Positions 13,856 to 30,622 of a stretch of DNA of 42,008 nucleotides are shown piece by piece (positions within the stretch are counted from its first letter, which is position 1; every line of letters starts with the position of its first letter). Below the pieces are notes generated by a model. The model had not been told where the DNA came from. It was given only the letters and a program-made list of their open reading frames with translations, and made no database searches. The stretch spans positions 26,708-68,715 of the forward strand of contig JBBTSG010000014.1 in NCBI GenBank assembly GCA_038064775.1. Reading direction: 5' to 3'. Both the position numbers and the translations under genes were made by a program. This DNA is from Patescibacteria group bacterium. Its GTDB lineage: Bacteria > Patescibacteriota > Minisyncoccia > UBA6257 > GWB1-50-10.

Positions 13856-16399
13856 TTATTTCCCATGACACTTCTTATATTTCTCTCCTGATCCGCACCA
13901 ACAGGGATCGTTTCTTCCTATACTCTTGAATTCCGGTGGGGGCGCCTGCGTTTTTTGAGTTGGCTGATTTAGATTCTCCAGTTTCAAATCAAAAACCTGG
14001 AAAACCGTGTTAAAAACAATCGTTTCGAAATTCTTTTCGAGCGCTTGAAAAAGCTGATGCGCCTCGCGCCGATATTCCACAAGCGGTTCGTGCTGGCCGT
14101 AAGCGCGAATATTTACCGATTCGCGCAGACCGTCAAGATTTTCCAAGTGGTCAACCCAAAGCATATCTAAAATTCTGGCTAAATGTTGGCCGATTATAGC
14201 GGATCTTAACGGTTCAAATTCCGTGGGCACCGCCGCTACTTTTTTATTAAATTCTTCAAATTGTTTTTGCCCTTCTTCATTCGGTTGGCTTTCCAGTTGG
14301 TTTTTTGTTGCTCCTAAAACTTTTTCAAAAATTTCTTCCAAAATCGGCCTTACTTTATTTTCTTCGCCAAAGCGCAAAAACTTAGCACGCCGATCATAAA
14401 CAACTTTCCGCTGTTTGTTTAGCACATCGTCAAAATCAAGAAGATGATGGCGAATATCAAAATTCGCTCCTTCCACTTTCGCTTGCGCTTGGTTCACCAC
14501 CCGCGAAACCATACTTGATTCAATTGGAATATCAGAAGGAAAATTAAACCTTTCCATCAAAGCTTTTAACCGATCGCCGCCGAAAATCCGCGTTAAATCG
14601 TCTTCGAGCGAGAGAAAAAATCTTGAAGAACCCGGATCGCCTTGTCTGCCGCTCCGGCCGCGCAATTGATTATCAATCCGCCGCGCTTCGTGCCGCTCCG
14701 TGCCAATTATATGCAAGCCACCTAATTCTTTGATTCTTTCGGCAGCTGATTTATCCGGCGGATTGCCGCCTAAAACAATATCAACGCCACGGCCGGCCAT
14801 ATTTGTCGCAACAGTGACGGCGCCTAACCGACCAGCTTGAGCAATAATCTCCCCTTCCCGTTCGTTATTTTTGGCGTTTAAAACTTCATGAGGAACGTTA
14901 GCGCGCTTTAAATAATCAGAAATAATTTCGTTGTTTGTAATGGAGGTTGTGCCAAGCAACACGGGCTGGCCTTTTTTATTTTTTTCTTTAACTGCTTCGA
15001 CAATAGCTTCATATTTCGCCTGCTTAGTTTTATAAATTGCGTCAGAGTGATCCTCTCGAACCATTGGCCTATTTGATGGAATTGATTGAACGTCAAGGTT
15101 ATAAACTTTATGAAATTCTTCGGCTGAGGTTTGCGCCGTGCCAGTCATGCCGGCAATTTTTTGGTAAAGCCGGAAATAATTTTGAATGGTGATAGTCGCG
15201 TAAGTGCGGTTTTCCTGCCGCACCGCCAAATTTTCTTTTGCTTCAATTGCCTGATGAAGGCCGCCTGAATAACGCCGGCCGTAAAGAATGCGACCGGTAA
15301 ATTCGTCAACAATTAAAATTTCGCCGTTTTTTACCATGTATTCTTTGTCCCGCTTGAACAAAGTTTTGGCTTTCAAGCTTTCTTGCAAGAAGTGAACAAG
15401 TCGAGCGTTTGCCGGATCAAAAATATTTTTAATGCTGATCATTTTTTCCACCTTATCCAACCCTGCTTCGGTGATATTCACCGATTTTATTTTTTCATCA
15501 ACCGCGTAATCCTCTTCCGGTTTCAACGCTTCAACGACTTTGGCAAAAGTTTTGTAAAATTCGCTCGACTCCGCGTCTGGCGCGGCAATAATTAAAGGCG
15601 TCCGCGCCTCATCAATTAAAATACTATCCACTTCGTCAATGATGGCGTAATTATGTCCGCGTTGAACTTTATCGGCTAATTTCAGAGTAAGATTGTCTCG
15701 CAAAAAATCAAAACCAAATTCGTGATTAGTGCCATAAGTAATGTCCGCCAAATACGCCTCTTTTCTATTAATTGGCCGCAAAAATTTTTCAATAACGCGA
15801 AAACTGCCGACCTCGTCCCGTTCTTTGTCTAAATCACTAACTTCACCCTTCGACTCGCTCAGGGCAGGCCCTTCGACGCGGTTTAAAGCAAGAAATTCTG
15901 GATCATAAAGATAAGCGGTATCGTGAATAATGCAAGAAATTTTTAATCCGAGCGAGTGGTAAATTTGGCCCATCCAAACCGTATCGCGGCGCGCCAAATA
16001 ATCGTTCACGGTAACCACGTGAACGCCGCGTCCGGTTAAAGCATTTAAATACGTTGGTAATGTGGCGACTAATGTTTTTCCTTCGCCGGTTAACATCTCC
16101 GCAATTTTTCCTTCGTGAAGAACCATGCCGCCCATAAGCTGAACATCAAAATGGCGCTGGCCGAGTTCGCGTTTTGCCGCTTCGCGAACCAAAGCGAAAG
16201 CTTCCGGCAAAACTTCTTCAAGAACTTCTTTATCACCATTTTTTGATTTAACTTCTTCTCGCAGTTTTAATGATTTTTCCTTAAGTTCTTCGCTACTTAA
16301 CTTTTCAATTTCTTTCTCTTTATCGTTTACAAGCAAAACAACGCCTTCGAGGCGTCGCAGAATTCTTCCGGAGAATAATTTTGTTAAAAATGATGCCAT
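13856..16399 (-). CDS. secA: Preprotein translocase ATPase SecA
   Basis: MLTGEGKT, DEVDSILIDEARTPLII, ATNMAGRG, RRIDNQLRGRSGRQGDPG, SEC-C motif GRNDPCWCGSG. Confidence 0.98.
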   Translation of the reverse strand: MASFLTKLFSGRILRRLEGVVLLVNDKEKEIEKLSSEELKEKSLKLREEVKSKNGDKEVLEEVLPEAFALVREAAKRELGQRHFDVQLMGGMVLHEGKIAEMLTGEGKTLVATLPTYLNALTGRGVHVVTVNDYLARRDTVWMGQIYHSLGLKISCIIHDTAYLYDPEFLALNRVEGPALSESKGEVSDLDKERDEVGSFRVIEKFLRPINRKEAYLADITYGTNHEFGFDFLRDNLTLKLADKVQRGHNYAIIDEVDSILIDEARTPLIIAAPDAESSEFYKTFAKVVEALKPEEDYAVDEKIKSVNITEAGLDKVEKMISIKNIFDPANARLVHFLQESLKAKTLFKRDKEYMVKNGEILIVDEFTGRILYGRRYSGGLHQAIEAKENLAVRQENRTYATITIQNYFRLYQKIAGMTGTAQTSAEEFHKVYNLDVQSIPSNRPMVREDHSDAIYKTKQAKYEAIVEAVKEKNKKGQPVLLGTTSITNNEIISDYLKRANVPHEVLNAKNNEREGEIIAQAGRLGAVTVATNMAGRGVDIVLGGNPPDKSAAERIKELGGLHIIGTERHEARRIDNQLRGRSGRQGDPGSSRFFLSLEDDLTRIFGGDRLKALMERFNFPSDIPIESSMVSRVVNQAQAKVEGANFDIRHHLLDFDDVLNKQRKVVYDRRAKFLRFGEENKVRPILEEIFEKVLGATKNQLESQPNEEGQKQFEEFNKKVAAVPTEFEPLRSAIIGQHLARILDMLWVDHLENLDGLRESVNIRAYGQHEPLVEYRREAHQLFQALEKNFETIVFNTVFQVFDLKLENLNQPTQKTQAPPPEFKSIGRNDPCWCGSGEKYKKCHGK
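15846..15887 (-). repeat. Family-A hairpin plus a degenerate second copy, in frame inside secA
   Basis: Sense strand ...AACCGCGTCGAAGGG CCTG CCCTGAGCGAGTCGAAGGG encodes NRVEGPALSESKG. Confidence 0.8.
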
Positions 16400-16403
16400 T
16401 CTA

Positions 16404-16474
16404 TTAGGAGGTCGGGCGGATAGCGGTGACCTCCAATTTTTTTTGAATTAGCGAGTGCTCTATCTATCCGCCCG
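16404..16474 (-). promoter_or_regulatory. Structured secA 5' leader with two mutually exclusive helices
   Basis: CGGGCGGATAG (16413-23) pairs with CTATCCGCCCG (16464-74); GGAGGTC (16407-13) pairs with GACCTCC (16428-34). Confidence 0.55.
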
Positions 16475-16592
16475 TAGTATTATGCCACTTCAAGCTATCA
16501 ATGAACAAGGGTCATAAAATATTGATATTAAAAGCGAAAGAGAGGTATAGTTACGAAAGAATAATTTTACAAATTAATATAAGGAGTTGAAA

Positions 16593-19500
16593 ATGAAAAG
16601 AAATAGCTTAATTCTTACCTGTTTTTTGACGCTTTCGTTATTCTTTAACGAAACAGCGGAAGGACAAAGAAATCGGACGTTGATGTCAAGGCCTTTTGAA
16701 TGGCAAATGATTCGGGGTGATCATTATATGATTTACTTCCCTAAACAAACCGAAACTATTGCTAGAAAGGTGGCAAAAGAAATTCCGACTATTCTTAAAC
16801 TTTATTCGGAGAAAATTTTTGTCACAGAAAGACCAATAAATGTTCCAAAAGACACACTCGAAAAATACCGCTACACAAGCGACAATAAGCTACCAAAATG
16901 GCTTACGCATCGGCCGTTCATAAGCGATACTCTCGGAAATGTAATCTATAAAAAACTTTACTGGCTACCAGAAACGCTCGTTATCGTTCTTTATCCCAAT
17001 ATGCAAGATTTTGGTGAACAGCGAATTGTTGATGAGTTTTTCCCGCCGGGAGTTTTGGGATTTACCGAGTATGGAAATAATCGAATTGCTCTTCCGTATA
17101 GCGGTAATGATCACGAATTCAAAGCAACTTTAAGCCACGAAATCGCTCACGCTTGTCAAAATCTTTTTGTTAAAGATGAATCTGATGTTGCTGATAAGCT
17201 TGGTTTGCCAAACAACAGCAGGCCTCGATACCCTCTTTGGTTTAGCGAAGGGTTTGCGGAATTTTCTTCAAGCGATATTTATATGGATTCTCTAGGAGAG
17301 CAGAGCGATTATCGACGTTATCGCACCGAAGAAATAAATTTAGAACTCACAGTTAATGAGAAGATACCTTCGCTTGAAGAATTAAAATATAACGGCGGAT
17401 TTCTGGTTTACACTATGGGCTACGAATTCCTGCGCTTTATGGCAAAACGTTTTGCGCCTGATTCTATTTCAAATCTTATGAAAAAAACTGCGCGTAACGA
17501 GGATTTTGAAAAAGCTTGGCTTCACACCTTCAAAGAACCGCTTCTTACTTCAGAAACAGAATGGTGGAAAAAAAGAAAAGTGCTTTATGACTTAAGAACA
17601 CTTTTTGAAAAAGCTGATAAACTACCGCAGGAAAAAATCGAATCCGATTCGATACAGGGCATTAAAGAATTAGAAATAATCGGCAAGGCTGGTTTTGACC
17701 CAAAAACTAGAACGATTGTCTTTTACGAGCCAAAAAAGAAATGGGGCATTAATGTGGCAAGTTTCAGTTTCGATGATACGGATATTACCAAATCAAAAAT
17801 TGAAATTGACCATCAATTTGCAAATAAATCGCTTTGGTATCGTTTAAACAATCCACCGGCTGTTTTCGGCGATCGGGTTCTTATTACTCTTTCGGGCGTT
17901 AATCAAAATTACATCCGTATTTTTGAACTTCAGCGTGGAACCGATGGAGAAAGAACTGGCGTAGAACTTAAAGAAGAAATCACTATTCCTGGAATTCTTT
18001 GGGTTAAGGATTTCCGCTTCGAGAGCGAAGATTTATTTTACTTCGTCGGTATGGATACTCTTGGCGAAGAAAATATTTATAGTTATTCAATTCTAAAAAA
18101 GGAATTGTCGAAACTCACGAATACTTCAGTAGCTAAAGAACAACCGGGAATCTTTGATCAAAAACTTGTCTACATAGCGAGTGGTAACGCGCGCGATGAG
18201 CATTTTCTATGCATTGAAGAAAAAGGCGAGGTCTCTCGTGTTAGTTTTTCGAATGAACGATTCGTTGATCAATGGATTGCGGATTCTTCTTGGATTATTG
18301 TGAAAGTTTTAACCGATAAGGCGATCCCCGACCTTATCTTTTGGCCTAAAGGCAGTTCTTTCGCTTACCGATATAAGTATGGCAATCCTTTTTACGGCGA
18401 TACTGGTATAAATTACGTCCGTTACCCGTTTGTTAGCCAACTTCTCGGTTTTTCTTCCGATGGAAAATTCATAGTAAGGGAAAGTAAAACCAAAGACGCG
18501 GAAAATGGCCGTTTTGTAGTCATCACGCTCGATACAAGTCTTCTCGAAAAAATCGAAGTGAAAATCATAAAAGGAATTCCTCAATCTGCTCAATTTATAA
18601 ACGACACTTCTAAAGTTGAGCCGCCTAACGATTCTTATAAATATCGGGGCGATTTGCCGTTTGATAATATCTTCGGCATCGACTTCCCAGGAATGGGAAA
18701 AACGAACGCTACTGGTGAAAAAGGAATGGAGATTAGCATGTTACTTGACAGACGATATGCTTATCAACATATGGGAGTTCGCTGGTTTGATTTTTCGAAA
18801 AGGTTAAGAAAGGAAACGGGACTTGGCGTAACAGGTCAACTAAGAGTACGGCGCTCGCCGGAATCTGGGCAGGAAGAACTCATCAAAGGAGGTATTCTTG
18901 AACTGAAACGGAGTTATAGCTGGCCATTTGATCTCGAAAACAGCATTACTCTTATGGGTGGCGTTGGTTTTTATGCCCAGCAACCACCCGACATAACTGT
19001 TCGTGACACTACAAAAAAAGATTCTTTGAATTGTGGCATCTTTGGTTGTGGCGATACCTTGAAAACAGTTGCTCAACCCGCTTTCTTGCATTCAACCGTA
19101 ATTCGGCTTGAAGCGAAATTTGTTTCGGACGGCAGTTTCGTAGATTTTTTCCGTTCCACAAAACACGGACATTATCTTGCTGTAAACTACGGCGTCATTA
19201 AGGGATTTTTAGGAGCGCTTCACAATACCGAAATTAACACCGAATTTGATGTTGACTTACGGTATTACTTCCGACCTTGGCAAGCTCGTCCTTATTTAGC
19301 GACTAGAGTTTTTTACGGAATTTCAACTGGTTATGGACCGTACGCTTTTTTCAATCCAGATCTCTATCGCAAACCGGGTTTTTACAGATTTAATTGGAGT
19401 AAAAGTTTTGGTAATAAAGTCTTCCTTTATAATCTGGAAGCTCGATTCCCTCTTTTTAGATTCTTTATGACTAATTATGAATTTTGGGAACATGAACGGC

Positions 19501-19712
19501 CTTGGTGGTTTTTCTCTTTCCAAGTAGCACCTTTCTTTTCCGGCGGCGATATTAAATGGCTCGGCGAACCGTTTAGCTTTGTGAATCGTTTCGGATTTGC
19601 CTGTAAAATGAGCTTATTTAGCTGGGCGCCAGCTTACTTAAGATATGAGTATTATAAATATCTTGATGAACAACCTTGGCAATCAGCTATGACTTTTGAA
19701 TTTGAGTACTAA
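16593..19712 (+). CDS. Large secreted protein: signal peptide + gluzincin (peptidase MA-like) + beta-propeller-like region + Omp85/BamA-like C-terminal beta-barrel
   Basis: SHEIAH...PLWFSEGFAEF; beta-rich middle; DVDLRYYF, GNKVFLYNLEARFPL and aromatic C-terminus FEFEY; AAGGAG 6 nt before ATG 16593. Confidence 0.7.
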   Translation: MKRNSLILTCFLTLSLFFNETAEGQRNRTLMSRPFEWQMIRGDHYMIYFPKQTETIARKVAKEIPTILKLYSEKIFVTERPINVPKDTLEKYRYTSDNKLPKWLTHRPFISDTLGNVIYKKLYWLPETLVIVLYPNMQDFGEQRIVDEFFPPGVLGFTEYGNNRIALPYSGNDHEFKATLSHEIAHACQNLFVKDESDVADKLGLPNNSRPRYPLWFSEGFAEFSSSDIYMDSLGEQSDYRRYRTEEINLELTVNEKIPSLEELKYNGGFLVYTMGYEFLRFMAKRFAPDSISNLMKKTARNEDFEKAWLHTFKEPLLTSETEWWKKRKVLYDLRTLFEKADKLPQEKIESDSIQGIKELEIIGKAGFDPKTRTIVFYEPKKKWGINVASFSFDDTDITKSKIEIDHQFANKSLWYRLNNPPAVFGDRVLITLSGVNQNYIRIFELQRGTDGERTGVELKEEITIPGILWVKDFRFESEDLFYFVGMDTLGEENIYSYSILKKELSKLTNTSVAKEQPGIFDQKLVYIASGNARDEHFLCIEEKGEVSRVSFSNERFVDQWIADSSWIIVKVLTDKAIPDLIFWPKGSSFAYRYKYGNPFYGDTGINYVRYPFVSQLLGFSSDGKFIVRESKTKDAENGRFVVITLDTSLLEKIEVKIIKGIPQSAQFINDTSKVEPPNDSYKYRGDLPFDNIFGIDFPGMGKTNATGEKGMEISMLLDRRYAYQHMGVRWFDFSKRLRKETGLGVTGQLRVRRSPESGQEELIKGGILELKRSYSWPFDLENSITLMGGVGFYAQQPPDITVRDTTKKDSLNCGIFGCGDTLKTVAQPAFLHSTVIRLEAKFVSDGSFVDFFRSTKHGHYLAVNYGVIKGFLGALHNTEINTEFDVDLRYYFRPWQARPYLATRVFYGISTGYGPYAFFNPDLYRKPGFYRFNWSKSFGNKVFLYNLEARFPLFRFFMTNYEFWEHERPWWFFSFQVAPFFSGGDIKWLGEPFSFVNRFGFACKMSLFSWAPAYLRYEYYKYLDEQPWQSAMTFEFEY

Positions 19713-19717
19713 AAAAT

Positions 19718-19752
19718 AGCCCTGACGTAAAAAACGTCGGGGCTTTTCTTTT
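19718..19752 (+). terminator. Intrinsic terminator of the large secreted-protein gene
   Basis: AGCCCTGACGT...ACGTCGGGGCT followed by a T-run. Confidence 0.8.
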
Positions 19753-19757
19753 GCCTG

Positions 19758-19865
19758 AAAAAAACCTCCGCCCTTGCGGGCGGAGGAGAAATTAGAAGGG
19801 CTTACCTTGGTTTTCGCCGCGAACCGAAGTTCTTGACGACAAGGCAAACTCAGCACTTCACTAAC
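19758..19865 (-). ncRNA. Candidate small structured ncRNA (about 105 nt; long hairpin with UUCG loop; possibly divergent SRP RNA)
   Basis: Own promoter TTGCAA-17-TACTAT with extended TG (19872-19900), terminator CCTCCGCCC-GCAA-GGGCGGAGG-T7, no ORF. Confidence 0.6.
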
Positions 19866-19901
19866 AAAAGCATAGTAGCATACATCTATTTAAATTGCAA
19901 G

Positions 19902-20948
19902 TCACAAAAGTTGATCTTCCGATTTTGGACCTTCAACCGCTAACGGTTTGATTTCCATTGCTTCGCCAGTAATCTGTAAAACGTCTTTATCAATTTTCCC
20001 GAATTCTTTATAAGCATTGTTATACATATTAACAGTGGTGCCTAAATTCTTGCCGAGCCGCTGCATGTAATCGTCGTAAGAACCAAGGTGTTTACTTAAA
20101 CGCTCTACTTGCTTGATAATATCGCGGGCTTGCTCGGAAATTTTTTGGTTTCTTAAACCTTGTAAAACTGTTTGAAGATAAGCTAAAAAAGAAGTTGGCG
20201 AAACTATAATCACTTTCTTTTGGCCGGCGTAACTAATTAAATTTTTCGTATCGTCAGTCACTGCCCCCACTTTATTGATTAGTAAATCGTAATAAACCGC
20301 CTCTGATGGAATAAACATAAAAGCGAAATCCATGGTGTTTTCTTCTGGCTTCACGTATTTTGACGTTTCATCAATCCGGTTTTTCAAGTCATTAACAAAA
20401 GCTGATTCGTATTTTTTTCGATCGGTATCATCACGCGCTTCGAGAATACGGTTATAATTTTCCAAACTAAATTTCGAATCAATCGGAATAATCCGCTTAT
20501 CAATTAAAACAACCGCATCAACAATCACGCCATCGCTAAAGGCGTATTGCATTTTATAGGCGCCGGGCGGCAAAACATTTTTCAAAACCGTTTCCAAATA
20601 ATACTCGCCCAAAATCCCCCGCTGTTTCGGGTTTTTTAAAATATCCTGCAGATTTTTCAACTGATCAGCGAAATTCACTACTTGTTTATTAGTCTCATCA
20701 AGGCGAGTCAATTTTTCGGTGACGTCACGGATAATTTTGGCGCTCTCGCCGAATTGCCGCTGGATTACCTTAGTTGATTCACCAAGTTTGCTGTCGAGCG
20801 TCCGGCCGATCTCGTTAATCTGATTTTGAAGCATTACGAACGACTGATCGCCATTCTTGCCTTTCCTTTGCTCGGAAAGAAACCGAAAAATTAAGGCAAA
20901 GCCAGCGATTATTACTAATACCAAAATGCCAAGAATTATTTCAACCAT
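19902..20948 (-). CDS. rmuC: DNA recombination protein RmuC
   Basis: N-terminal TM, coiled coil, RGILGE, PIDSKF, FAFMFIPSE, VSPTS. Confidence 0.92.
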   Translation of the reverse strand: MVEIILGILVLVIIAGFALIFRFLSEQRKGKNGDQSFVMLQNQINEIGRTLDSKLGESTKVIQRQFGESAKIIRDVTEKLTRLDETNKQVVNFADQLKNLQDILKNPKQRGILGEYYLETVLKNVLPPGAYKMQYAFSDGVIVDAVVLIDKRIIPIDSKFSLENYNRILEARDDTDRKKYESAFVNDLKNRIDETSKYVKPEENTMDFAFMFIPSEAVYYDLLINKVGAVTDDTKNLISYAGQKKVIIVSPTSFLAYLQTVLQGLRNQKISEQARDIIKQVERLSKHLGSYDDYMQRLGKNLGTTVNMYNNAYKEFGKIDKDVLQITGEAMEIKPLAVEGPKSEDQLL

Positions 20949-22022: not shown

Positions 22023-22475
22023 ATCAACCGCTTCCGTTTTTTCTTCTTTAGTTTTTACTTTTAAATCTGTTTTAATCCCCCCTCCAAAATCAATATTTAC
22101 TTTATGATCGCCTATTGTTTTAATCGGATGTTCTAAAAGTATCTTAAAATTTTTGAATCCGTTATTTTTTAGGAAGTTTCCGATTTCTCTTTCGCCTATT
22201 GAACCAAAAACTTCGCCTTTTTTGCCGGTTTTTAAACCAAATTCAGCGGTTAATCCATTAAGCCGGCTCGCGTCAACTTCAAGTTTTTTCAAAAGTGCAT
22301 CATGCTCGGCAGTCAAAATTTCTTTCTGCCGCTTAAGTTTTTCTAAAGTATTAGGCGTAGCAATCATTACAAGTTTTTTCGGCAAAAGGAAATTGCGAAC
22401 ATAGCCGTCAGCAATTTCTTTCACTTCGTATTTTTTGCCCAATCCTTTGATATCCTGAAGAATAATTACCCTCAT
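21987..22475 (-). CDS. rplI: 50S ribosomal protein L9
   Basis: [14 protein letters not shown]...[10 protein letters not shown]...VFGSI...PIKTIG; overlaps rpmA convergently by 36 nt. Confidence 0.95.
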
Positions 22476-23671
22476 AGTTCAGCTCGTAAAATTTCCAAAG
22501 CTTTTTCTAACTGAATGTCTTTAGTACTCGTTGAGTTTTCGTCTAGCGCTTTAACTTCAATGTCCGGTGTTAAACCCTTTTTGTTAATTTCCGTGCCGTT
22601 CGGCGTGAGCCACTCCGCCACCGAAACTTTTAAGCTCGAACCGTCTTTCAAATTTTGAATTTCTTGAACCGTCCCTTTACCGAATGATTTTTCGCCAATA
22701 ATTTTTATATTCCGATTGTCGCGCAGGGCACCCGCCAAAATTTCTGAAGCTGAGGCAGAACCGCCATTCATTATAATAACCATTGGTAGATTTCTCATTG
22801 CTTCATTGCCATTCGCATAAAATTTATCTTCATTGCTAGCGTGATATCGTTCCCGGACAACTACATCGCCCCGTTTTAAAAACCAGCCAGCTAAATTTAC
22901 TGAAACATCCAAAAAACCACCGGGATTATTCCGTAAATCTAAAACCACGCCTTTTGCACCGTGAGTCAGTGCTTCAAACGCTTTATTGTAAAAAAGCGAA
23001 GGCGCGTTGGAATTAAAATTATAAAGGTGAAGATAGGCAATTTTTCCTGGTTTCATTTCGTAGTCAAGCGTTGGTACGTTGATAATCGCACGAGTGATCT
23101 TAATTTCTTTAGCCGCCGCCCAACTATCGCGTGAAATTAAAAATACTACCACCGTTCCCGGCTCGCCGCGGATAATTTTTATCGCCTCATCAATCGGAAG
23201 GCCGGTTGAATCCGTATCATTGATCTTCAATATTTTATCGCCTGGCCTCAGACCGGCTGCTTCGGCTGGAGTGTCTTTTAAAGGCGCGATTACCACCAAC
23301 TGGTCATTTTTTATACCAATCTGAGCGCCAATACCGCCAAAACTGCCGCTTAAATCTTGCGCAAATTTTTGGGTATCAACGGGTTTGAAAAAGGTCGTGT
23401 AAGGATCTTTAACTGTGCCGACTACTCCTTGAATCGCTCCATAAAGAAAATCTTGATCTTTAAAATCTTGGACGTTAACATAACGACTTTTTACAATATT
23501 TACCGCATCCCAGAAAAGAGAAAAATCAGCGTTGATTAGCTCGTGACTATCGGTAATATTAATAACCGCTCTTTGGCTGCCAAAACGAAATCCGCCGTAA
23601 AAAAAACCGCCGGCAACAATAAGAATAAAAAGCGTGAAACCGAGTATTTTTGAAACTTTTTTGAAACGCAT
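22472..23671 (-). CDS. ctpA: Carboxyl-terminal processing protease (S41A, PDZ)
   Basis: DPYT, GIGA PDZ, DLRNNPGG, SASASEI, SFGKG. Confidence 0.92.
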   Translation of the reverse strand: MRFKKVSKILGFTLFILIVAGGFFYGGFRFGSQRAVINITDSHELINADFSLFWDAVNIVKSRYVNVQDFKDQDFLYGAIQGVVGTVKDPYTTFFKPVDTQKFAQDLSGSFGGIGAQIGIKNDQLVVIAPLKDTPAEAAGLRPGDKILKINDTDSTGLPIDEAIKIIRGEPGTVVVFLISRDSWAAAKEIKITRAIINVPTLDYEMKPGKIAYLHLYNFNSNAPSLFYNKAFEALTHGAKGVVLDLRNNPGGFLDVSVNLAGWFLKRGDVVVRERYHASNEDKFYANGNEAMRNLPMVIIMNGGSASASEILAGALRDNRNIKIIGEKSFGKGTVQEIQNLKDGSSLKVSVAEWLTPNGTEINKKGLTPDIEVKALDENSTSTKDIQLEKALEILRAEL

Positions 23672-29431: not shown

Positions 29432-30622
29432 TTACCGTTTTAAGTTTCGCGCTACTTCCAAGGCTTTAAAAAGCTGAACGTCTTGCGGGTTCTTTGTCTG
29501 ATCGTTTAATGGCAAGATCTTAAAATCTAGTTTTAAGCCTACGCCCTTAACAGAAATTCGATTGGGTGTTAACCAACGATTGGTAGTAAGAGTGATCCTC
29601 GAGCTGTCAGGCATTAAAAAACAGGTTTGAATTAAATTCTTGCCAAAAGTTTCTTCGCCGACAGTAACCGCCAAATCATAATCCTTTAGAGCGCCGATCA
29701 CCATTTCTGAAGCGGAAGCAGTTCCTTTGTTAACTAAAAATACCTCCTGTCGGTCTCGAAGCGGAGCAAAAAATTTTCTTGTTTCAACTTTCACAATCTT
29801 TTCACTATCACGCCCCAATTCAAAATAAATGGTCTCCCCTCTCGGAAGCCAAAGAGAGATAAAACGATCAGCTGAAATAACAGGTCCGCCGCCATTATTT
29901 CTAAAATCAAAAACAAATCTGGCTTTCGGAAAATAATTCATAACATCATAAACAAAAGATTCGATAGTATCAATATTCCTTTGCTCAAAATTCGGCAAAG
30001 ACAAAACAAAAATACTATCTTCAAAAATCTGGCATTTAAACTCGTCTTTTTCAATGCGCCAAAAACTTCTCCTCAAGGAAAGTTTTTGTTTTTTATGATT
30101 TCTCGTCTTCAAAACTTCAAGAGAAACTAAAGAATTAAGAGGGCCGGCAAGCGCGGTTATCGCCTCTCCTTTTAGCATTCCTTTTGTTTTTGCGCCGTCA
30201 ATTGAATAAATTTTATAACCAACTTCTAAACGGGCTTCGTCGGCAGAGCTTTTATCTTGAACGTTAGTAATAATCAAACAACTATCGGCGGTTTCTATTT
30301 CAATACCAATCAAACCAACCGTATCAGTAAAAAATATATGGTTATAGTACCAAAATTCTTTAGCGGTCAAAAAATTTGAGTACGGGTCATGAAGGGCAGA
30401 AACCATGCCTTTTAGGGCGGCGTGAACAAGTTTTTCCTGATCTGGCACGTCAGCGTAAAACTGGCTGTTAATTAAAATTTCGCCAATTCTCAGGTAAGCT
30501 AGCTCCCTGAAAAATTCGGAATCGTTAAAAAATTTCTCGCTTTTCGCGCTTTTCGTTTGGGCCTCCCCTACTCTAGGTAAAAACCAAAACAAGCATAAAA
30601 CTAAAATGACTGTCCTTTTCAT
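29432..30622 (-). CDS. Second, divergent S41 carboxyl-terminal protease with cleavable signal peptide
   Basis: HDPYS, IGIE PDZ, DFRNNGGG, TASASEM, TFGK. Confidence 0.85.
   Translation of the reverse strand: MKRTVILVLCLFWFLPRVGEAQTKSAKSEKFFNDSEFFRELAYLRIGEILINSQFYADVPDQEKLVHAALKGMVSALHDPYSNFLTAKEFWYYNHIFFTDTVGLIGIEIETADSCLIITNVQDKSSADEARLEVGYKIYSIDGAKTKGMLKGEAITALAGPLNSLVSLEVLKTRNHKKQKLSLRRSFWRIEKDEFKCQIFEDSIFVLSLPNFEQRNIDTIESFVYDVMNYFPKARFVFDFRNNGGGPVISADRFISLWLPRGETIYFELGRDSEKIVKVETRKFFAPLRDRQEVFLVNKGTASASEMVIGALKDYDLAVTVGEETFGKNLIQTCFLMPDSSRITLTTNRWLTPNRISVKGVGLKLDFKILPLNDQTKNPQDVQLFKALEVARNLKR

Follow-up and report, generated by a model that had tools for sequence, protein, structure and literature searches.

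Beta-barrels of the Omp85 superfamily are treated as a hallmark of the outer membrane and as a marker by which lineages are scored as diderm or monoderm, and Patescibacteria have been scored without them. Within the superfamily, the available text of Heinz & Lithgow (2014; PMC4104836) describes a WD40-Omp85 cluster with a TolB-like propeller and N-termini of non-POTRA type, and speculates that this arrangement is a BamA-BamB-like fusion; the available text of PMC11358297 refers to some Omp85 subfamilies with 'divergent WD40 and peptidase domains'. We found no experiment on any WD40/peptidase-Omp85 member in the accessible portions of either article. Here we describe a gene of this type in a stretch of 42,008 nucleotides (hereafter the window; contig JBBTSG010000014.1 of assembly GCA_038064775.1, positions 26,708 to 68,715) from a Patescibacteria group bacterium. 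Its product, a protein of 1,039 amino acids (P0001), joins a putative metallopeptidase and a propeller to an Omp85-type barrel that has lost both residues of the superfamily's lid-lock. The coordinates of all features are collected in Table 1.

A first-pass annotation, made from the letters of the window, had read the gene as an HExxH...E peptidase, a propeller and an Omp85 barrel in succession. The open reading frame (ORF) is real and complete, and structural models and structure searches bear out every part of that reading. An AlphaFold2 (AF2) model of residues 680-1039, built from 28 sequences, is all-beta, with a predicted local distance difference test score (pLDDT) of 86.2 and a predicted template-modelling score (pTM) of 0.82; the full-length model (31 sequences) reaches 84.5 and 0.86, respectively. 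The best Foldseek matches to the barrel model are BamA barrels (E 4.7e-8, template-modelling score 0.61). VIA-align pairs the same model with D. radiodurans BamA (8xnb_A) at Z 20.0, with 297 residues aligned at a root-mean-square deviation (rmsd) of 4.2, and with P. aeruginosa TamA (8us4) at Z 19.5; all 50 matches that it listed are barrels of the Omp85 superfamily (BamA, TamA, Sam50, Toc75). The barrel within the full-length model, compared by a search independent of Foldseek, matches BamA at Z 20.9. Alignments to 8xnb cover 297-300 residues, and sequence identity to BamA and TamA is 9-14%.

Searched directly, the protein gives no match to PF01103 (Omp85) at E<=1 and none to POTRA; homology to the superfamily is transitive. 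An exhaustive full-length phmmer search of 1.84 billion representative sequences found 578 relatives at E<=1e-3, of which 132 remain at E<=1e-10 and 20 at E<=1e-30, which is beyond chance. Close relatives align end to end; distant ones, 900-1100 amino acids in length, match mainly over the peptidase region and carry Peptidase_MA_2 and PD40 (PF07676) repeats. A profile made from the last third of the 15 closest sequences was searched against 157 collected proteins, and matches colinearly the C-terminal thirds of P0043 (2e-26), P0060 (2e-20), P0085, P0076 and P0073. Eight of ten such relatives scanned pass PF01103 (26.6-42.9 bits, cut-off 24); the other two are P0032, at 22.7 bits, and P0038, which gives no match. 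Since the profile of the clade reaches relatives that pass PF01103, the protein is a divergent member of the WD40/peptidase-Omp85 subfamily, in which it is placed both by its propeller N-terminal to an Omp85 barrel and by colinear homology. We hold this identity, and the three-domain architecture of peptidase, TolB-like propeller and 16-strand Omp85 barrel, with very high confidence.

The N-terminal domains are likewise recognizable by fold. Residues 20-334 of the full-length model match M9 collagenase (7wss_A; Z 16.8, 236 residues aligned, 14% identity) and M30 lugdulysin (7bb8_A; Z 16.1). By sequence, the sole Pfam match of the protein is Peptidase_M9 (20.8 bits, under the cut-off of 26) and the sole NCBIfam match is flagellinolysin (23.1 bits, under the cut-off of 205), while residues 1-320 searched against the PDB returned noise only (a beta-galactosidase at E 0.48); relatives P0004-P0007 pass PF13485 (Peptidase_MA_2). 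H182, E183, H186 and E219 do not vary in either alignment of family members (15 of 15 and 31 of 31 sequences), and nor does G220 in the larger one. The segment WFSEGFAEF, which contains E219, is one that we take to resemble the W-x-x-E-G motif of M1 peptidases. The HExxH motif and downstream Glu that define gluzincins (clan MA) can be read in the alignment, and the putative catalytic site appears intact.

For the propeller, residues 373-650 of the full model align with E. coli TolB (1c5k_A; Z 19.2, 235 residues, rmsd 3.2) and with TolB 7mx5_B (Z 18.6). The family profile, compared with the PDB by sequence, returns TolB only (best match 7mx5_A, E 0.0013), and Pfam finds no PD40 repeat in the protein itself. 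At the N-terminus, members across the family alignment share a hydrophobic stretch with a small residue and RN after it; AF2 renders residues 2-17 as a low-confidence helix.

The barrel departs from the superfamily in a feature regarded as central to it. In the available text of PMC7644211 the lid-lock is a salt bridge from the arginine of a (V/I)RG(Y/F) motif on loop 6 (L6) to the aspartate of an (F/G)xDxG motif on strand 13 (beta13); it is reported in all Omp85 structures and described as essential. The first-pass annotation had listed four motifs in the C-terminal region, N.E.RFPL, KPGF, FFSGG and a terminal FEFEY, and had judged the lid motifs degenerate. All four are present (the first as NLEARFPL, the third extending to FFSGGD), and KPGF and FFSGGD do fall at the aligned lid positions. 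Counts were made with simple patterns anchored on ExRxP, which occurs in 15 of 16 full-length rows from the clade of small genomes that includes this protein and in 81 of 97 other rows. Among rows so anchored, RG[YFW] is found in none of the 15 from the clade, compared with 60 of the 81 others, and hydrophobic-x-D-x-G/A in none of the 15, compared with 77 of the 81; PG plus a hydrophobic residue occupies the L6 position in eight clade rows. By these patterns, both partners of the salt bridge have gone together in the small-genome clade. The loss suggests that gated insertion or translocation is a function the barrel has given up; its main role may now be that of an anchor or an unlocked channel.

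Other properties of the barrel have been kept. The chain ends in an aromatic residue in 15 of 16 clade rows and in 90 of 97 others. The signal recognized by BAM (the beta-barrel assembly machinery) is given, in the available text of PMC13067283, as a C-terminal GxxPhi-x-Phi ending in an aromatic residue; our protein ends F-E-F-E-Y, with no Gly at the expected place. Strand faces were assigned on 14 diderm-type rows only and then applied to 17 rows of the clade. Mean hydropathy of the outer and inner faces is +0.91 and -0.77 in the diderm-type rows and +0.83 and -0.75 in the clade, where the outer face is the more hydrophobic in 14 of 14 strands. We infer from this alternation that the barrel is probably still embedded in lipid.

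This last result bears on the possibility that no membrane is involved. The product would then be a soluble protease, secreted or associated with the wall, whose barrel is kept as a scaffold, or it would form pores and attack other cells' membranes from outside. Such a protein would need neither a lid-lock nor the assembly machinery that we did not find in the genome (below), and it would sit well with the failure of the Pfam Omp85 model on the sequence. A soluble monomer with such a surface would be prone to aggregate, however, and over the long divergence of the clade the hydrophobic face should have decayed; it is as strong as in diderm relatives, and the closed 16-strand barrel is modelled with high confidence. 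We therefore regard a protein free of membranes as improbable.

The organism is, as had been presumed, a bacterium of the candidate phyla radiation (CPR). The source genome (G000) comprises 605,612 bp in 26 contigs, with 95.24% completeness and 0.04% contamination; its 40 nearest relatives range from 0.5 to 1.4 Mb, and syntenic homologues of the gene are found in metagenome-assembled genomes (MAGs) titled Candidatus Jorgensenbacteria (47% identical) and Patescibacteria group. The DNA itself occurs in groundwater metagenomes; among the four runs found with it there is no RNA run. The first-pass annotation had called for a check of the genome for outer-membrane genes, and none of those searched for was found: PF01103, LpxC, LptD, OEP/TolC, TamB, OmpH/Skp, FadL (PF03349) and secretin all gave zero matches, and the control of every search did match in diderm model genomes. 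For POTRA there were only two matches, both sub-threshold (12.9 and 12.4 bits) and both outside the barrel gene, and the C-terminal profile of the clade matches no second barrel among the 930 ORFs of the genome. The other five carriers of the gene that we found (G041-G045) have genomes of 0.6-1.2 Mb, and PF01103 matches in none of them. Across 401 genomes sampled evenly from the phylum, PF01103 never exceeds its cut-off, whereas the control matched in seven diderm model genomes. The sole match in that sample falls short of the cut-off (18.1 bits, E 4.1e-4); it is located in a 1555-aa open frame (L027, G095:C2:159686-162967) of a genome of two contigs and 0.7 Mb, and may be either another hidden Omp85-like barrel or noise.

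The history of the gene was approached through a FastTree phylogeny of 114 rows of >=880 amino acids, which is unrooted and was made by a method prone to joining long branches. One branch (Shimodaira-Hasegawa-like support 100, length 0.67+0.57) divides 17 rows, the small-genome clade, from the other 97. Clade members are 23-48% identical to the source protein, and all six rows for which a genome could be checked fall among the 17; those genomes are 0.6-1.2 Mb in size and without BamA. Source names of distant members include 'BamA/TamA family outer membrane protein [candidate division KSB1]' (for example P0060) and 'Tol biopolymer transport system component'. Clusters of look-alikes, which we take as a lead only, occur most often in Cloacimonadota, Spirochaetota, Pseudomonadota, Myxococcota, Gemmatimonadota, Elusimicrobiota and Fidelibacterota. 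With no outgroup alignable at full length the tree stays unrooted, so that import from a diderm and ancient inheritance both fit.

Within its genome the gene has the marks of a resident. Its GC-content of 0.393, against 0.403 for the genome, lies at the 30th percentile of 514 windows of 3.1 kb, and it sits within a 69-kb contig between secA and rmuC. Across the six loci secA is linked to the barrel gene in four and rmuC in three. In the window and in loci L003 and L004 (SecA 68% and 67% identical) secA is the immediate divergent neighbor; at L005, where the barrel-gene member is only 28% identical, a secA fragment lies about 5 kb away. If the gene was transferred at all, then the native GC-content and the presence of secA beside so distant a relative mean that the event was old. 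The earlier claim of acquisition from a diderm is unproven as written. The gene is conserved and has long been resident in a few ultra-small genomes of Patescibacteria type. As a separate observation, the linkage to secA may be a remnant of ancient synteny or may mark a functional connection with Sec export.

An artefact (a contaminating diderm contig, a chimera, or a fresh and decaying cassette) has in its favor that the wider family is typical of diderm phyla, and that two of the five other loci found (L005 and L006) come from records titled 'Gammaproteobacteria'. The titles look wrong: these genomes are 0.9 and 1.2 Mb and lack PF01103, and 30 relatives of G043 measure 0.6-1.3 Mb. The frame is intact, its neighborhood recurs in two other MAGs, and in G043, a genome of 0.9 Mb, the relative is carried by a contig of 876 kb. 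The junctions, which the first-pass annotation had wanted checked, were examined with per-run assembled contigs from two samples of one groundwater study. One sample's contig spans 15800-20300 without difference, although it may be the source of this DNA itself; a contig of the second sample spans 16073-20300, and shorter records bridge 16217-17117 and 19667-20238. Both junctions are thus bridged by contigs of two samples with no differences listed, the contig is not chimeric, and GC-content and the low contamination of the genome agree. An artefact of any of these kinds is extremely improbable. Two of its forms were rejected as candidates: recent import, on native GC-content and synteny at 28% identity, and contamination or chimerism, on synteny, bridging contigs, native GC-content and the 876-kb contig.

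A further alternative is that the carriers are not strictly monoderm and have a cryptic outer lipid layer, retained from a diderm ancestor or newly built, in which the Omp85 protein would perhaps be the sole insertase and the gene a vertical relic rather than an import. Ancient divergence predicts a deep, well-supported branch such as that between the 17 and the 97 rows, and the persistence of secA synteny across 28%-identical members fits, as do the sorting tails of type IX secretion encoded in the same genomes (below). The remainder of the genome does not: there is no other barrel of the family among the 930 ORFs, and FadL, OEP, secretin, LptD, TamB, Skp, LpxC and PorV were not found. Moreover, almost none of the relatives searched carries the gene, an odd distribution for an essential builder of the envelope; the protein has lost a lid-lock described as essential (in the available text of PMC7644211); and it belongs to the WD40 subfamily and not to BamA. 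An outer layer of the cell's own is very improbable on this evidence.

A screen of the exported ORFs of the source genome drew attention to a second set of proteins. Three carry type-A sorting tails of the type IX secretion system (T9SS; Por_Secre_tail), with scores above curated cut-offs in both NCBIfam (34-41 bits, cut-off 23) and Pfam (33.6-41.3 bits, cut-off 27). Such tails are a trait of the family: at E<=1e-3 they occur in 14 of its 24 other genomes, among them assemblies of four and seven contigs, and in none of 16 genomes from other families of the order; above cut-off, they occur in 21 of the 400 other genomes of the phylum sample. All six carriers of the barrel gene have them, and in G043 tail and barrel gene share the 876-kb contig. 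Of the T9SS machinery, PorV was found in none of 41 genomes and a PorU-type C25 peptidase in none of the 25 genomes of the family; SprA_N (PF14349) gave no match in the 41, but its control matched in no genome either. A complex prediction for residues 26-690 with a T9SS tail of the same genome (score 0.00, mark 0.32) weighs neither way. The tails look to be a second orphan outer-membrane module beside the barrel gene, newly recognized here. Their co-occurrence points to a wider, unnoticed set of modules of outer-membrane type in these symbionts, and may hint at the kind of host.

Which bilayer, then, does the barrel enter? We tentatively favor an explanation in which the protein would be exported via Sec and its barrel would enter a lipid bilayer, anchoring a propeller-gated protease at the cell surface. 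That the barrel should still be in a bilayer is suggested by its hydrophobic lipid-facing surface, kept as well as in diderm relatives. The bilayer would be a diderm host's outer membrane, at the site of attachment; this is the likeliest candidate because nothing found in the cell would let it build an outer membrane for itself. The first-pass annotation had proposed that the protein may act at a host's outer membrane, and among the readings considered this one leads. There the protease would trim envelope proteins at the interface between symbiont and host, and the terminal aromatic strand would either close the barrel by itself or be read by the BAM of the host. Taken whole, with the host-membrane step included, this account falls somewhat short of an even chance; the host's outer membrane at the contact site, as destination, is if anything a shade more tentative.

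The alternative closest to it places the barrel in the cell's own membrane: inserted from outside after Sec export, it would display propeller and peptidase as a protease of the surface or S-layer zone. This is the only bilayer that an exported chain certainly meets, and, as normally happens when Omp85 proteins are assembled, the N-terminal domains would remain on the side from which the barrel inserts. The kept hydrophobic face, a lid-lock loss that suits an anchor-only barrel, the lack of any sortase match in the genome (PF04203, zero matches) as another means of anchoring, and a conserved secA linkage that fits a simple Sec-only pathway are all in keeping with it. To our knowledge, however, transmembrane beta-barrels in the bacterial cytoplasmic membrane are not known. 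A 16-strand barrel would risk leakage where a simple helix or lipid anchor would suffice, and the terminal aromatic strand is given no reason beyond closure of the barrel. Insertion into the cell's own membrane is, on balance, unlikely.

Several observations weigh against the host-membrane explanation itself. No route of delivery into the periplasm of a host is evident, and we know of no precedent for an Omp85 barrel that inserts from outside into a membrane bearing lipopolysaccharide (LPS). The protein's location is one that we infer, and no host is on record for the lineage; the hydrophobic face and the terminal aromatic residue, moreover, suit any bilayer, the cell's own included. The gene is rare: it is present in two of 41 close relatives, that is, in one of the 24 other genomes of its family, and in none of the 30 relatives of G043, and the 400 other genomes of the phylum sample hold no full-length match and two peptidase-only matches. 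Being so rare, it is not a general attachment device of the group. Finally, common descent may explain why T9SS tails accompany the barrel gene. Of the six carriers, three are close kin and the other three (G043-G045) are of a phylum not established, which weakens any statistics on the co-occurrence.

A bolder reading, which we think improbable, is that these parasites address proteins to the outer-membrane machinery of a host (its BAM, its T9SS), much as proteins are addressed to organelles, or else that they build an unseen outer layer with a lock-less Omp85 protein as the only insertase. Either form, if true, would give a group regarded as single-membraned its first case of Omp85-dependent biology. 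Whichever bilayer is involved, a conserved Omp85 barrel with an apparently intact protease escapes standard annotation, in genomes in which no BAM, LPS or Lpt genes were found. This raises the questions of whether an Omp85 barrel can be assembled without BAM, and into which membrane; of whether some CPR bacteria insert proteins of their own into a host's outer membrane; and of whether the lid-lock matters when the barrel is a mere anchor.

The gene had been described as a self-contained cassette, and its surroundings bear this out: it is monocistronic, with its own Shine-Dalgarno sequence and terminator, between a divergent and a convergent neighbor (Table 1). A TTG at 16587 is a candidate alternative start that would add two residues; because it falls within the Shine-Dalgarno spacer, the ATG at 16593 is the likely start. 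The promoter is given as a candidate only, since the intergenic region holds six promoter-like sites against a mean of 7.4 in shuffled sequence, which is no excess. Beyond the gene, a GC-rich perfect hairpin (nine pairs, eight of them G-C) with a T-run lies 3' of rmuC at 19765-19786 (minus strand), and the leader region of secA holds another GC-rich hairpin, also with a T-run, at about 16409-16436. Two genes for S41 proteases, each no more than 11 kb from the barrel gene, are also found in the window. The first (22472-23671, minus strand) is CtpA-like and tail-specific, with Pfam Peptidase_S41 and PDZ matches; the second, S41-like as judged by eye (29435-30622, minus strand; G000:C14:56142-57329), has a signal peptide ending AQ.

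Table 1. Features of the peptidase-propeller-Omp85 gene and its surroundings (positions in the window), and T9SS-tailed proteins elsewhere in the source genome (contig:positions).
Feature	Position	Strand	Basis or remark
secA, divergent neighbor	13856..16399	-	Pfam SecA domains
Promoter-like candidate, TTGATA-18 nt-TATAGT	16522..16551	+	10/12 matches; in the 193-nt divergent intergenic region common to secA
Shine-Dalgarno AGGAG	16582..16586	+	6 nt upstream of ATG; sequence read
Peptidase-propeller-Omp85 gene (P0001)	16593..19712	+	Complete ORF, 1039 aa; stop at 19710-19712
Putative Sec-type signal peptide, residues 1-24	16593..16664	+	MKRN n-region, 14-residue hydrophobic core, TAEG/Q end; read by eye
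Gluzincin metallopeptidase domain, about residues 30-340	16680..17612	+	Structure matches, weak sequence matches
HEIAH zinc-binding/catalytic motif, H182, E183, H186	17136..17150	+	Alignment
WFSEGFAEF with E219, presumed third zinc ligand	17238..17264	+	Ligand role from position
TolB/PD40-type beta-propeller, about residues 343-655	17619..18557	+	Structure and profile match
Omp85-type transmembrane beta-barrel, about residues 700-1039	18690..19709	+	Model, fold search, transitive homology
KPGF, residues 927-930, aligned with L6 lid motif, Arg to Pro	19371..19382	+	Alignment
EARFPL, residues 949-954, family-wide strand motif	19437..19454	+	Alignment; E949 and R951 invariant, P953 nearly so
FFSGGD, residues 981-986, aligned with beta13 (F/G)xDxG, Asp lost	19533..19550	+	Alignment
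TFEFEY C-terminal strand, beta-signal-like	19692..19709	+	Sequence; alternating aromatics, terminal Tyr
Intrinsic-terminator-like hairpin, then T-run	19718..19744	+	11 pairs; 3' of stop codon
rmuC, convergent neighbor	19902..20948	-	On the other side of the barrel gene
T9SS-tailed protein	C10:2188-3060	-	Among loci L013-L015, outside the window
T9SS-tailed protein	C20:5387-7150	+	Among loci L013-L015, outside the window
T9SS-tailed protein	C2:5561-6916	-	Among loci L013-L015, outside the window

Compared with known systems, the protein is closest to the WD40/peptidase-Omp85 subfamily, with which it shares domain order, a length of about 900-1100 amino acids, colinear homology over three domains, the ExRFP strand motif and the terminal aromatic residue. 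Unlike those relatives it stands on a separate long branch, has neither RG[YF] nor xDxG, and does not reach the Pfam cut-offs for Omp85, PD40 and Peptidase_MA_2. It has the 16-strand barrel fold of BamA and TamA (8xnb, 8us4, and E. coli BamA 7nre), but no POTRA domain; the partners of the L6-beta13 salt bridge are replaced, and neither partner lipoproteins nor substrate barrels are evident in the genome. With TolB of the Tol-Pal system (1c5k, 7mx5) it shares the fold of the C-terminal propeller, which is here fused between a peptidase and a barrel. As in M9 collagenase, M30 lugdulysin and Peptidase_MA_2, HExxH and a downstream Glu are set in the same fold; unlike in curated gluzincins, every sequence match is sub-threshold and the domain forms one chain with a propeller and a barrel. 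A further parallel is PlpD, which the available text of PMC4104836 presents as a fusion of an Omp85 barrel to an envelope-acting enzyme domain, patatin: PlpD is a lipase with POTRA from a diderm with BAM, whereas the present protein couples a metallopeptidase and a propeller to its barrel in a genome in which no BAM was found. In the literature text available to us we found no report of an Omp85-family protein, or of T9SS tails, in Patescibacteria. What is new beside these systems is a lock-less clade of WD40/peptidase-Omp85 proteins, confined, as far as checked, to ultra-small genomes that lack BamA.

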